A stretch of DNA of 64,000 nt, taken from a virus. The position numbers were made by a program, and so were the translations under genes. Below are positions 16,431 through 27,865 of this stretch, piece by piece (positions within the stretch are counted from its first letter, which is position 1; every line of letters starts with the position of its first letter). Location of the stretch: IMG/VR virus record IMGVR_UViG_3300046323_000234; one strand, 5' to 3'. The notes below the pieces were generated by a model. It did not search any database. It was not told the origin of the DNA and worked only from the letters and a program-made list of their open reading frames with translations.

Positions 16431-18121
16431 ATGGAGAAAACAACAAAAGATGAACTTATTAAAAAGTGGGAGGATAGTGGAATATTAGATGGACTTACTA
16501 AAATGGATGAAAATAGTAAAATTGTTAAATTATTTGAACCTAATTTAACACAAAAGATTTTTGAGAAAACAATACCCAATGATGATAAAAAAATCGAATT
16601 AACAACTGATGAGTTACTTAATTTACTAAAGGAGGCATATAGAAACGGCTATTCAACATATGAAATGGTGGATGCTGGATTAGAGCATTACGATGCTGAT
16701 GGTTATGCAAGGTGGGTGCTTTTTGGATTGAAACAGTAATTAAAATACAATGGCAGATCAGAAACTAATTGATAAATATCTTAAAGAATTTTATGAGGTA
16801 CAAAGATTGAAAGTACCAATAGAATTAAATAGTTATCTTCATAGAATGATAGATGAAGCTTTACATATACATGGTGTTAACATTTTGATTTGTGAAAAGT
16901 GTAATAAAAATGAACAATACGTAGAAGAAAATCCACTATGTTTAACATGTTTATTAGAAATTTATGATAAACAAAATAATAGTTAATAGATATATAAAAA
17001 TTAGTTTATACCTATGAAATACGAAGCACTTAGAAAAGAATATTATGCGGTTTATGAAAAAGAACCAGCACATCAAAACGAGAAAAATGGTGTGATATTA
17101 GCACCATATAATACAAAAGAAGAAGCTGAAAAAGCGAGAGTTAAATATGGATATGGTAATAATAACTATTATGTAGATAAACTCATAAATTAATTTTTAT
17201 TTAAAACGAAAATATTATGAATAACGAAAAAGTTGAAAATTTAGATATTAGCAGTAATAAATTACTTTTATCTGGCGTTAGTAGTACACTTACATTAAGT
17301 GGTGTGTTAAATATTAATGCAACTTCAAATGTAACAACTAAAATAAGTGGATGGTTTAGTGATAATTACAAGACTTATTATGTTGATGAAAGTGGTAAAA
17401 AGCATTACAATTAATGTTTACAAATATATAAAACTTAATTATTATGGATGAATTAAAATTTGACAAAGAAACAGCAGTAGCACTTTATCGTATATTCTGT
17501 GGATTAAGTACAAGTTGTTATCAAAATGCAGAAGTATATGATAAAGCAAAACCTAATATGAAAACTGCATACGATAAAGTGATTGAATGGGGTAGGAAAA
17601 ATTGTGATAATATTCATGGAAATTAAATTTATTGAAAGCCATAGCTTTGTGGGTGAATCTATGTATATGGTGGTAAACGAAAATTCACATAGTTTAGAAA
17701 TGGATAAAAACCAAACATATGCACAACATGCGATAAAGCTGCTAAAAGATATTTATAATATTGATAAGAAAATAGAAGATATTGAATTTGTGTGGGATGG
17801 TACTCTTTAATGGAGCAAACTTTAAATAAATACAAAATGAACTGGACAACAATTTTTAAAAGGGAAAAACCAACTGCGATAATGCCTGAACCAAAATTTG
17901 AAGATAATTGGAGGCAAGAACGTTATGAACAAAATGTAAAAGATGGTGTTTTATCTTTACAGAAAGGTAAAAGTATAAAAATAATGGATGATGGTAGAGG
18001 ATATGAATTAGCATTGGAAATAAAACACCGCTTTATGTTAGAATACCAAAAGCAATTGTCAGAAAAAATAAAAATTAATGGTAGAGATACAATTACAGTG
18101 TCGTTCCAAAATGGCATATAA
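16431..18121 (+). CDS. Run of small hypothetical ORFs (16431, 16750, 17014, 17217, 17444, about 17616, about 17810)
   Basis: Co-oriented short ORFs; 17014-17193 translated by hand. Confidence 0.6.
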
Positions 18122-18189
18122 CGGCTGCGTGTATGAAACGTAATGGATTATAACCACGAAACTTAATACGAAGTAGAAACGTAGCATTT

Positions 18190-18280
18190 GATATAACGGT
18201 TGTGGATATGAGAAAAGAAAAAATACCAAATTCAAAAATAGAAAAAGATTTTTTACTTTCTTATATCCGTTGTTATCGGT
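18190..18280 (+). repeat. attC-like imperfect inverted repeat
   Basis: ATAAC-GGTTG-TGGATATGAGAAA ... TTTCTTATATCCG-TT-GTTAT. Confidence 0.65.
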
Positions 18281-18353
18281 CTGTAAAATTTCAATAATTA
18301 TTTTTTTTGAGGGGAGGAATTAATCAATTTAATGTTTTAATAAAAACAACAAA

Positions 18354-18443
18354 ATGGAAAATATATTTGTGAATTACGAAATAGCAAAACAACTAATGAA
18401 ATACGGATTTGCTGAAAAATGTGTGGCTTTGCACATACTTTAA
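18354..18443 (+). pseudogene. Truncated ORF fused to the right half of an attC-like site
   Basis: MENIFVNYEIAKQLMKYGFAEKC runs into TGTGGCT...AGCCACA and then GTTATAGG at 18486. Confidence 0.4.
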
Positions 18444-18516
18444 AATTATAGATAAATTTATTTAGCCACATTACTTATACACTTTGTTATAGGTATGTAA
18501 AATAAAACGGATTAAT

Positions 18517-18729
18517 ATGAACAATAAAATAAATAACAAAATGAATAAGGAAACAAGAAGTTTTATTTGGGGCTTAATTTTAGTCCTAATCTGTGGAAGC
18601 GGATTTGTTGTTCACATAATCGAAATTAAAATCGGGAAGCCAAGAGATTGGTATGATTGGACATTAATGGTATTAACTCTTTACGGATTAATCTCTGGTG
18701 GATGGCGTGTCTTTCGTGCTATCGATTAG
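18517..18729 (+). CDS. Small two-TM membrane protein (cassette-like)
   Basis: Two hydrophobic segments; flanked by attC-like sites. Confidence 0.65.
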   Translation: MNNKINNKMNKETRSFIWGLILVLICGSGFVVHIIEIKIGKPRDWYDWTLMVLTLYGLISGGWRVFRAID

Positions 18730-18733
18730 GGTT

Positions 18734-18832
18734 GCCGATAACGTTTTGCGTATATACGAGGTACGCCTTAACGAAATTTTACATTATAAACAAATGCTTG
18801 TAGGCGTATCTTGTATATACGCTGTTATAAGC
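18734..18832 (+). repeat. attC-like imperfect inverted repeat
   Basis: GATAAC-GTTTT-GCGTATATACGAGGTACGCCT ... AGGCGTATCTTGTATATACGC-T-GTTATAA. Confidence 0.75.
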
Positions 18833-18848
18833 TGTAAAAATTACGATT

Positions 18849-18995
18849 ATGGCAACAGTTTACAAAGTAGAAGTAGTATCTCATTGGATTAGCTACTCAA
18901 AGGAAGAACTCGAAAAGATACTGACAGAAGCAGTAAAGGAGATTGAACGTGAAAAAGGAAATGAGATACAGATTAGAGTGGAAGAACGTAAGTAA
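18849..18995 (+). CDS. 48-aa cassette-like ORF, not in ORF track
   Basis: MATVYKVEVVSHWISYSKEELEKILTEAVKEIEREKGNEIQIRVEERK; bounded by 19/21-nt inverted repeats. Confidence 0.7.
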   Translation: MATVYKVEVVSHWISYSKEELEKILTEAVKEIEREKGNEIQIRVEERK

Positions 18996-19118
18996 TTTTT
19001 ATTGCTTATAACGATTATATATAAGCAATAAAATATAAAGTATTGAAAATTAATATTTTACAACACGAAAACTACTGACTATTACGAAATTTGTAAACAA
19101 AAATTGAAATATTAACAC

Positions 19119-19730
19119 ATGTTATCAAACCTAGCAAATATCATCTCAGATGATTCATTATTTAATTATAGTAATATCCCCTATATAAACTATTATAGTT
19201 CAACAGACACAATAATAGATACTAAATTACCAACACTAATAATTGGTTATAAACTAGCAAAACAAATATACAATTCTGGGATTGATATATTAAATAAGGT
19301 TGTTGCACCAAACCAAAAATATTGGACTTTTACAGCTGAGGAAAGAAATTTAGATTATATAAAAGATACCAAGCATTTTGTTGATAATGTAATAGGATAT
19401 TATCAATCCAATCAGAAATATATCAATTATGATCCATTATTTGCAAACAGTAAATCAATATATGATTTTATTGATTATATAAAAAATAAAGAGATAAAAT
19501 CATATAAGAATAAATATTCATTATATATAAAAACTGAAGATACAATTTTTGGATTTGATATGAGAATAATAGATAAATACTATCCAAATAACAATTTAAT
19601 AAATATTATATCAAACAAATCCAATTATTATCTTGATGATAATAATCTTATATTAAGCAGTTGTATAAAAAAATATGGAAATGAAATAAGTAATTGTAAA
19701 AAAATAATTGTTAATCTAATATCTGAATGA
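19119..19730 (+). CDS. Hypothetical protein
   Basis: LPTLIIGY and YWTF motifs; 203 aa. Confidence 0.7.
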   Translation: MLSNLANIISDDSLFNYSNIPYINYYSSTDTIIDTKLPTLIIGYKLAKQIYNSGIDILNKVVAPNQKYWTFTAEERNLDYIKDTKHFVDNVIGYYQSNQKYINYDPLFANSKSIYDFIDYIKNKEIKSYKNKYSLYIKTEDTIFGFDMRIIDKYYPNNNLINIISNKSNYYLDDNNLILSSCIKKYGNEISNCKKIIVNLISE

Positions 19731-26644: not shown

Positions 26645-27865
26645 ATGGAAGATAATATAATATACAAAATTTATGGATTATATGCTTTAGATGATGAATC
26701 TAAAATAATTAGATATGTTGGATATACAAAAAGAACGATTAAAAAAAGATTATCATCACATATTCACCAATCCAAAGAACGTGATACACATAAAGATCGA
26801 TGGATAAGAAAAAATAATCGTAATATTGATGTTATATTAATTGAAGATAATATAAATACGTATGAATTGGTTTTAGAACGTGAAATATATTGGATTGATT
26901 ATTATAAGAAAATTGGGAATGATTTAGTAAATAGTACTGCTGGTGGTGATGGCACTAAAGGTAGATCACCATCAATGGCTGAACGTGAGCGTTCTAGAAA
27001 GTTAAATTTAGGTAAAAAATTATCTGAAGAACATAAAGCTAAAATAGGTAAGTCACATAAAGGTAAAATACTATCATTAGAACATAAGCAAAAATTAAAA
27101 GATAAAAAACAAAATGTTAGTGATGAAACCAAACAGAAAATGTCGATTATGGCCGTTAGGAGATTTTTGAGAGAGAAAAATATATTTGTTGATGATTTAT
27201 TAAATGATGAAATAGTTCACATAAAACAATTAATAATTGAATATGATAATTTAATAAAACAATTGGTAAAAACCCCAAATGATGATATCGAGTTTTATAA
27301 AAATAAGAATTTTGAAAATAAATTAAATTATGAATTAAAAAAATCCGAAGAGTATAAATTAGGAATTTTAACAAATAATGCAATAGCAATAAAAATAAAA
27401 GAAGATAAATTAAATATAATCAGAGAGAGAGAATTAAAAAAGAATTTTTTAATTCAAGAAAAAATTAATAAACAGCAATTAATTAAAACCGAAAGAGAAT
27501 TAAAGAAACAAAAAGAATATGAATCCAGACAAAAATTAATTGATTCGGGTGATCTATATCAAATGGTTAATTCACTTGGTAAATTGATTTGGGTTAGAAA
27601 AACGTCTGAACAAACCAAACAAAAACTTAGAGAAGCTAATCTTGGTAAGAAATATAGTGAAGAAACAAAAAGAAAACATTCTGAAACCAATTTTAGGATT
27701 AGAAATGGTAAAAAGGGTGTAAAATTAACCGAAGGTGATATTAGAGAAATTAGAAGATTATGCGATAATGAGAAAACAACTAAAGAATTGACAGAAATAT
27801 ATAATATGGATTATTCAACAATCAGAAAAATAGTCCTAAGAAAATTATGGTCAGACATTAAATAA
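26645..27865 (+). CDS. Free-standing GIY-YIG homing endonuclease with NUMOD3 repeats and C-terminal HTH
   Basis: KIYGL...YVGYT, R-x3-H, REIYWI, N-STAGGDG; GKKLSEEHKAKIG repeats. Confidence 0.85.
   Translation: MEDNIIYKIYGLYALDDESKIIRYVGYTKRTIKKRLSSHIHQSKERDTHKDRWIRKNNRNIDVILIEDNINTYELVLEREIYWIDYYKKIGNDLVNSTAGGDGTKGRSPSMAERERSRKLNLGKKLSEEHKAKIGKSHKGKILSLEHKQKLKDKKQNVSDETKQKMSIMAVRRFLREKNIFVDDLLNDEIVHIKQLIIEYDNLIKQLVKTPNDDIEFYKNKNFENKLNYELKKSEEYKLGILTNNAIAIKIKEDKLNIIRERELKKNFLIQEKINKQQLIKTERELKKQKEYESRQKLIDSGDLYQMVNSLGKLIWVRKTSEQTKQKLREANLGKKYSEETKRKHSETNFRIRNGKKGVKLTEGDIREIRRLCDNEKTTKELTEIYNMDYSTIRKIVLRKLWSDIK

Follow-up and report, generated by a model that had tools for sequence, protein, structure and literature searches.

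A probable array of integron-like cassettes with attC-like hairpin sites in a large AT-rich phage

In this study, we analysed a 64,000-nucleotide (nt) stretch of viral DNA, IMG/VR record IMGVR_UViG_3300046323_000234, which is referred to here as the window. At 18.1-19.0 kb, the window carries short open reading frames (ORFs) separated by long imperfect hairpins that resemble attC, the recombination site of integron cassettes. An initial annotation, made from the letters of the sequence, had described this locus as an integron-like cassette array without an integrase. Integrons are considered near-absent from Bacteroidota and rare in phages, and recombination of folded hairpins is credited to a domain unique to the integron integrase IntI. 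Our results indicate that 18.1-19.0 kb is probably a small, recombinase-less and partly eroded array of integron-like cassettes with structure-specific recombination sites.

Genes and hairpins of the locus

The window is rich in AT, with 27% G+C. Its DNA belongs to a large phage, every gene lies on the + strand, and the encoded proteins include a DnaB-like helicase, a class I ribonucleotide reductase, sugar-modifying enzymes and a homing endonuclease. A dense run of small ORFs fills 12-31 kb, and long hairpins stand between ORFs only at 18.1-19.0 kb. A scan of the 64-kb window gave no other intergenic ATAAC...GTTAT hairpins as strong as the two complete ones, which were designated H2 and H3. 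The homing endonuclease gene (26645-27865; PHROG 314 with an HNH C-terminus) is free-standing and also lies in the small-ORF region. The features of the locus are as follows, with lengths of proteins in amino acids (aa).

17810..18121, + strand: resident phage ORF of 103 aa, 5' of the array; its stop codon TAA (18119-18121) lies within the first core ATAAC (18118-18122)
18111..18152, + strand: half-site 1, 5' core ATATAAC (TAAC at 18119-18122) and a left-arm remnant, with the adjacent right arm absent
18185..18284, + strand: H2, a complete but degenerate attC-like site (ATAAC...GTTAT span 18193-18276)
18355..18441, + strand: gene remnant of 28 codons (MENIFVNYEIAKQLMKYGFAEK...), broken off just 5' of the next right-arm remnant
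18455..18503, + strand: half-site 2, a right-arm remnant with 3' core GTTAT (18486-18490) and a TGTAAAAT tail
18517..18729, + strand: cassette ORF of 70 aa, a predicted membrane micro-protein with zero family matches
18730..18836, + strand: H3, a complete attC-like site (ATAAC...GTTAT span 18738-18828)
18849..18995, + strand: ORF48, a cassette ORF of 48 aa
18824-18844 and 18992-19012, no strand assigned: 21-nt inverted repeat around ORF48, 90% complementary
18996..19035, + strand: terminal half-site, 5' core TTGCTTATAAC (TAAC at 19009-19012) inside a short AT-rich hairpin; end of the array

The alternation of short ORFs with ATAAC...GTTAT hairpins that the initial annotation reported was confirmed at both complete sites. 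The left half-sites at 18118 and 19008, the right half ending at about 18490 and the stop codon within the TAAC core were also as described there. The core-to-core length was 84 nt in H2 and 91 nt in H3, and the two complete sites, which are accompanied by three half-sites, are spaced 446 nt apart. H3 is made up of 5' core TTGCCGATAAC, a bulge GTTTT, a 21-base-pair (bp) stem with two G.T pairs, a 33-nt loop and 3' core TGTTATAAGC.

The half-sites resembled H2. Half-site 1 showed 81% identity to the left end of H2 over 21 nt, and half-site 2 showed 82% identity to its right end over 33 nt. The halves at 18118 and 18471-18490 (18455-18492) paired with each other at -17.1 kcal/mol, and 12 of 1000 shuffles were as good; the left arm at 18118 paired at least equally well with the right arm of H3. 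The idea that these halves form one split hairpin was set aside as unproven, the pairing not being unique. The 28-codon remnant between them looks like the N-terminus of a full-length ORF at 7737 in contig L003, as judged by eye without a score.

ORF48 is enclosed by the 21-nt inverted repeat, whose left arm is the 3' core and tail of H3 and whose right arm is the lead-in and next 5' core. The duplex of the two arms reached -23.1 kcal/mol, compared to -4.7 +/- 2.0 in shuffles (0/1000 equal). Both arms were kept in contigs L005, L006 and L007 despite a different enclosed ORF, and the homology of these contigs to the window ended at TAAC(G) of the terminal half-site. The resident ORF at 17810-18121 had homologues in three IMG/VR phages (L001-L003; 62-77% aa identity), and none of them was followed by a hairpin. 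The array is therefore an insertion or acquisition relative to L001-L003, which are too divergent from the window for indel mapping. A blastn search of the array locus against GenBank phages gave zero matches, and zero relatives were found via the neighbouring window ORF at 19119-19730.

Structure and distribution of the hairpin sites

Folding as single-stranded DNA was examined on both strands. H3 reached -20.9 kcal/mol on the + strand (z -4.8, 0/200 shuffles as good) and -16.7 kcal/mol on the - strand. The corresponding values for H2 were -10.5 kcal/mol (z -2.5, 2/200 shuffles) and -7.5 kcal/mol (z -0.8). H3 lay far outside its shuffles and H2 modestly so. A covariance model, R1, was built from 98 copies of other phages with the window sequence excluded. 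R1 scored H3 at 77.4 bits (E 2e-14) on the + strand and at 15.4 bits on the - strand; H2 was found on the + strand only, at 44.7 bits (E 7e-8). At default filters, R1 overlooked the shorter window sites, which were recovered with filters off. A covariance-model check had been proposed in the initial annotation, and both complete sites were recovered in it. The search of the window gave zero further sites 3' of the terminal half-site. With filters off, nothing significant was found at 16750-17414, a search that is a poor test for half-sites.

The alignment of 98 long copies was examined for covariation. RNAalifold gave 23 pairs, of which 17 had compensatory changes. Paired cells amounted to 95.1% in the 98 copies and 67.3% in shuffles, and the covariation score was 0.662 against 0.159 in shuffles (0/500 reach it) and 0.07-0.12 in slid controls. 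TAAC/GTTA did not vary in any of the 98 aligned copies. Two G.T (G.U) pairs were each kept in 95/98 copies, and their neighbouring pairs covaried freely. The structure of the hairpin, rather than its sequence, is under conservation. When both transition mismatches were scored alike, 363 G.T and 122 A.C were counted; this excess of G.T indicates that one strand is the folding strand. The idea that the right arms code for a conserved peptide was discarded, since the reading frame varies among copies. A search of Rfam 15 with the window and seven array-rich loci gave no family at gathering score and only sub-threshold generic microRNA-hairpin matches.

The sites form a family that is found in phages and in Bacteroidota. 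The left arm of H3 had an exact match in five IMG/VR contigs. In these, about 120 nt around the hairpin were 92-97% identical to the window and the flanks had no DNA similarity; the same contigs carried additional hairpins with other stems and the same ends. The pattern TTGCNNATAACGKTTTGC occurred in at least 119 viral contigs and in many genome contigs, about half of them from Bacteroidota (Flavobacterium, Chryseobacterium, Kaistella, Pedobacter, Chitinophaga and others). With a purpose-made scanner, at least about 250 distinct viral copies were counted in at least about 120 IMG/VR loci. The viral family counts are based on the TTGCNNATAACGKTTTGC matches listed and are lower bounds.

The order of parts was common to the family. 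From 5' to 3', the upstream ORF ends in its stop codon, TTGCnn(A/C)TAAC and the bulge G(G/T)TTT come next, and a stem of roughly 20 bp leads to the loop; behind the returning arm stand a single T, GTTA(T/G)nnGCTG and a leader rich in A, followed by the next ATG. The lengths fell into two groups, one of 70-99 nt and a very tight one near 125 nt. The left-arm bulge beside the core that the initial annotation had pointed out is real and a family trait: it is asymmetric, with 5 nt including a G in 196/273 copies and 1 nt opposite in 201/273. In phages, the 5' core directly adjoins the stop codon of the ORF before it, and block boundaries show that the hairpin moves with the downstream ORF.

Several variants were observed in the family. 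In many 125-nt copies, coding starts in the loop, with an ATG and a few further codons, and continues through the right arm, for example at the methyltransferase genes of phage G001 and contig L129. The loop of the 125-nt form (about 65 nt, alignment columns 47-141) is A-rich and has three repeats of about 20 nt, each with ACAAA followed by TTnAA. At L129:6844-7105, the arms of a single site surround a complete 64-aa ORF in a loop of about 215 nt, which may be compared with 18118...18490 of the window. In a Bacteroidota metagenome-assembled genome (CP058707; G009:C1:3.47-4.04 Mb), about 45 same-strand matches to TAACG(G/T)TTT(G/C) lay within 0.5 Mb. Core matches across this genome numbered 59 forward and 19 reverse, and three were confirmed as full sites (L239). 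Possibly, the clustered matches make up one array that is very large or scattered.

Cassette exchange and the linked recombinase

Closely related phages showed where the exchanges take place. Contigs L067 and L129, which are 99.8% identical, differed by a replacement of 726 and 1757 bp, respectively. On the left, the replaced stretch began after TTGCTTATAACGTTTTGCA, and on the right it ended in another core, at ...TAAC|TCCCC. Base by base, the junctions between near-identical phages switched inside (A)TAAC in 7 of 8 cases, at a resolution of 4-5 nt. Read on the complement, the crossover at this resolution is G|TTAT and lies at the 3' end of the site, which is also its position in attC. Replacement boundaries at the GTT cores of relatives were the comparison on which the initial annotation had staked its reading beforehand, and these seven junctions bear it out. 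Over all viral loci, 37/110 internal ends of homology blocks lay within 25 nt of a 5' core. A plain gene indel between these two phages, here 97-99% identical, was also seen: L067:4940-5175, compared with L129:4215, has a 236-bp insertion with a small ORF and no hairpin site, outside the array.

Whole units of hairpin and ORF recurred in different contexts. A 796-bp unit of hairpin and methyltransferase gene was shared at 99.9% between L066 (1776-2571) and L129 (7122-7916), and a 474-bp unit was shared at 98% between L066 (949-1422) and L067 (8086-8559). Both units are delimited by two cores. A homologue of ORF48 (69% aa identity) follows an H3-type site in L122, a nine-site phage array that terminates at a recombinase gene. 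The similarity of the window to L122 starts at the ATAAC of H3 and spans the hairpin, the ORF and the terminal core; the DNA upstream is unrelated. Together, the covariation, the strand bias, the junctions at cores and the recurring units support the earlier proposal that attC-like single-strand hairpin sites bound mobile cassettes.

A second explanation of these data is that the hairpins are selfish miniature palindromes, similar to miniature inverted-repeat transposable elements or repetitive extragenic palindromic elements, which enter spacers as mobile units with the ORFs as bystanders. The copies are many and dispersed, H3 is 92-97% identical across six phages with different ORFs and dissimilar flanks, and the same-strand core matches in CP058707 run over about 0.5 Mb, although the pattern is short and most matches are unverified as sites. 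However, hairpin and ORF travel jointly between two cores, the arrays are ordered with one ORF per site, no target-site duplications were seen, and the polarity to the recombinase, described below, is constant. We therefore regard this explanation as very improbable.

A recombinase gene was found beside such arrays in other genomes. In Pedobacter glucosidilyticus DSM 23534 (L266:9069-18372, G006:C10), six consecutive units, each with one ORF and one site, come after a 473-aa XerA-like tyrosine recombinase, and 4/6 of their sites have near-identical stems. Housekeeping genes (ccmF, maf) lie on the other side of the recombinase. This recombinase has an N-terminal extension of about 200 aa without a family match, and one cassette protein has PLD-like and HA domains. 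A separate repeat, distinct from the site family, was observed here: the last approximately 50 nt of the recombinase gene and about 100 nt downstream (L189:439-585) recur at 91-96% in at least 5 other Pedobacter places (G006 contigs C21, C1, C44 and C26). In tblastn searches, homologues of the P. glucosidilyticus recombinase were found in nine more bacterial site-bearing loci and six viral loci, the latter including G001, a complete 62.9-kb phage with terminal repeats. Along the folding strand, the recombinase gene lay 3' of the array in 15/15 loci that have both sites and gene. A tyrosine recombinase, which the initial annotation had suggested looking for elsewhere, is present at a fixed side of such arrays in other genomes. 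In G001, the start codon of the recombinase gene lies within GTTATG. Directly 5' of this gene (L004:4115-4225) stands a core, TTGCACCTAAC, that lacks a following hairpin and is a possible counterpart of attI.

The recombinases were not of the IntI type. The G001 enzyme (277 aa) aligned with residues 10-179 and 245-318 of VchIntIA (2a3v), with 23 residues between these segments compared to 65 in VchIntIA. This difference indicates that the IntI-specific I2 insertion is missing from this homologue of another genome. The closest solved structure of the G001 enzyme was XerA (4a8e). Recombinase homologues from other genomes scored 167.6 and 191.7 bits with TIGR02249, under its cut-off of 265. The IntI-specific insertion (I2 helix) is regarded as necessary for hairpin recombination (PMC7790495).

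The orientation of the sites relative to genes differed between phages and bacteria. Among the matches listed, sites of viral contigs (L004-L145) were sense to genes in 189 cases and antisense in 5. In bacterial contigs (L146-L265), 63 sites were antisense and 7 sense, and they lay 13-60 nt past ORF stops, like attC. The favoured folding strand is therefore the ORF strand in phages, including the window, and the strand opposite to the ORFs in bacterial arrays. The recombinase gene switches its orientation along with the ORFs, so that it is antisense in arrays of the bacterial type and sense in those of the phage type, and its end of the array is unchanged. Because the orientation to transcription flips and the strand asymmetry of the site itself is constant, the device acts at the DNA level. 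A transcript-level role had initially been preferred on account of the sense orientation, the G.U pairs and the start codons in loops, and it was dropped because the bacterial copies are antisense.

The best surviving alternative is that the hairpins are regulatory stem-loops of the type of promoter early stem-loops (PeSLs), which act by attenuation, processing or stabilisation, and that homologous recombination between such repeats shuffles the genes. The hairpins are indeed intergenic in a hyperplastic region of small ORFs, the phage copies are sense with G.U-compatible stems, some loops hold the start codon of the downstream ORF, and breakpoints fall partly outside the core. It has been reported that PeSLs of T4-type phages drive such modular shuffling and form mini-circles (PMC2839356, PMC4122927). 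No transcript-level role, however, explains the antisense arrays of bacteria, and a homology of 5 nt, within which 7/8 junctions fall, is too short for homologous recombination. The constant geometry to the recombinase gene (15/15 loci) and the lack of any Rfam family match also speak against this alternative. At the locus of the window, 10 promoter-like sites were found with 10.6 +/- 3.1 expected, there were 0 terminator-like sites and no T-tract behind the stems, and inspection gave no Bacteroidota -33/-7 promoter motifs. This evidence argues against a purely RNA role of the hairpins, and we consider the PeSL-type alternative improbable.

Several observations weigh against reading the locus as an array of integron-like cassettes. 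A tblastn search of the 64-kb window with the array-linked recombinases gave zero homologues even at E 10, in agreement with the absence of an integrase stated in the initial annotation. The array-linked enzymes lack the IntI-specific I2 insertion and are tied to the sites by genomic linkage, and where the phage is temperate, the enzyme might be no more than the lysogeny integrase adjoining the accessory region. One of the 8 junctions, the left junction of one cassette, lay just past the bulge. In L005, in L006/L007 and in the window, H3 was coupled to three ORFs of 48-52 aa that are unrelated to each other, with conserved cassette ends, so that other exchange routes must exist, and L004 retains just the left arm and loop of H3. 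An added RNA role of the phage sites is possible because their folding strand is the mRNA strand. H2 is a weak, degenerate member of the family and the half-sites are degenerate, so that the array of the window may be a fossil; it probably is one in part.

With these points considered, an array of integron-like cassettes remains the probable reading, and a mechanism can be proposed for it. The site would fold in single-stranded DNA, on the + strand in the window, into a basal helix TTGCnnATAAC/GTTATnnGC and a 4-5-nt asymmetric bulge. Above this, there would be a stem of about 20 bp, free in sequence but with fixed G.T pairs, and a loop that varies. Once folded, the site would be bound by a tyrosine recombinase of XerA/XerD type, and strand exchange would occur within ATAAC, which reads G|TTAT on the complement and coincides with the position used in attC. 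In this way, a hairpin and the ORF after it would be excised, inserted and exchanged as a unit between co-infecting phages. The enzyme acting on the array of the window would be encoded outside the window. We infer the XerA-like recombinase as catalyst from its linkage to the arrays; the single-stranded substrate is likewise a presumption, and present activity of the array in the window is a supposition.

The cargo of the cassettes was examined in the family. Among 136 distinct ORFs 3' of viral sites, about 31 were DNA methyltransferases (N6_N4 20, D12 4, C5 3, MT-A70 2, others). The remaining viral cassette ORFs mostly had no family match, and the median length was 106 aa. Bacterial cassettes included HepT-like toxins and hydrolases. 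The likely benefit to the phage is a set of exchangeable accessory genes; among those that can be recognised, orphan DNA methyltransferases, which would shield the phage from host restriction, occur most often.

It is about evenly balanced whether the family represents a second integron-like capture lineage without IntI. Such a lineage would use a XerA-like, I2-less enzyme and would be pervasive in Bacteroidota and their phages, with mirror-image phage arrays, two cassette pools that have recombination sites in common but are insulated for expression, and a phage pool that is largely anti-restriction. If true, an abundant attC-like family with an I2-less recombinase would broaden the range of single-strand-hairpin cassette systems, explain in concrete terms how the accessory regions of Bacteroidota phages become mosaic, and offer a natural toolbox of exchangeable anti-restriction genes. 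The opposite gene polarity of phage and bacterial arrays is a sharp and testable oddity. For the window alone the yield is modest, the array being small and probably partly fossil.

Comparison with known systems

Repeated intergenic stem-loops that flank small ORFan genes in hyperplastic regions of large phages are known as PeSLs (PMC2839356, PMC4122927). Like the present sites, they mark boundaries of insertion, deletion and replacement among close relatives. PeSLs differ in that they carry a sigma-70 promoter and a terminator and are shuffled by homologous recombination, whereas the promoter and terminator signal is absent from the sites of the window. Unlike PeSLs, the family sites have a 5-nt crossover core, a recombinase partner and antisense copies in bacteria.

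Xer-type recombinases without the IntI insertion also act at short cores in the pdif sites of Acinetobacter plasmids, which bound gene modules, and at attP of the CTX phage. The latter is an XerCD site that exists only in folded single-stranded DNA, as is proposed here. The core TGCnnATAA of the family is, we assume, similar to the XerC arm of dif. However, the pdif sites are double-stranded, measure 28 bp and have no long hairpins, and CTX inserts a whole genome at dif. Neither pdif nor CTX makes ordered arrays of ORFs and hairpins.

Phage arrays of attC sites without an integrase have been reported previously. Qi et al. 2023 found 3 complete integrons, one In0 and 17 clusters of attC sites lacking integron-integrases (CALINs) among 10,705 phage genomes (PMC9892861). 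One of the CALINs, in Polaribacter phage P12002L, carries methyltransferase genes, and IntI1 recombined 5/6 of the phage attC sites tested (PMC9892861). In Bacteroidetes, IntegronFinder 2.0 detected only In0 and one Salinibacter integron (PMC9024848). We found hairpins related to the present family adjoining the methyltransferase and Mom genes of P12002L. The present family shares with phage CALINs the occurrence of methyltransferase cassettes in phages, and the window has at least two close sites with no integrase homologue nearby, which agrees with the definition of a CALIN. The array is therefore of a known kind; what is novel is the type of recombinase, the polarity and the abundance in Bacteroidota phages.

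It is even less probable than the selfish palindromes, if by little, that the locus is a true CALIN of canonical cassettes which a phage merely carries from bacteria and a host IntI with the I2 domain recombines: the AAC/GTT cores, hairpin size and array layout match attC and IntI1 is able to use phage attC sites (PMC9892861), but all recombinases found beside the arrays are without the IntI insertion, almost no integrons were found in Bacteroidetes by IntegronFinder 2.0 (PMC9024848), and the ORF polarity of phage arrays is reversed relative to bacterial cassettes, which means that phage cassettes are not simply borrowed bacterial ones.

The hallmarks of integrons were retained in part: the cores and the arrays agree with them, and the lack of the I2 insertion, the ORF strand and the place of the hairpin before its ORF do not. 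Because the enzyme has no IntI insertion, the phage ORFs have a polarity of their own and the array is small and eroded, we call it integron-like and not a canonical integron. The differences from integrons are as follows. The recombinase linked to the family is XerA/XerD-like without the I2 insertion, and its gene is co-directional with the cassette ORFs. Phage ORFs lie on the folding strand and follow their hairpin, whereas in integrons the attC follows the ORF. Unlike in attC, some loops of the family contain a start codon or an entire ORF, and two G.T helix pairs are near-invariant. The extended core TTGCnnATAAC deviates from RYYYAAC/GTTRRRY outside AAC/GTT.

The likeness to attC sites and CALINs is nevertheless extensive. 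Both have imperfect hairpins of about 60-130 nt, invariant inverse cores AAC...GTT and an unpaired spacer by the core, and the lengths of the family sites fall within the attC range of about 57-141 nt. Both have a stem that is kept in structure, one favoured strand and a crossover at the AAC/GTT core, and the bacterial copies of the family fold, like attC, on the strand opposite to the ORFs. The arrays consist of one ORF and one site per unit, with a tyrosine recombinase at the attI-equivalent end; in classical integrons, intI and attI stand on the same side of the array as the recombinase gene does here.

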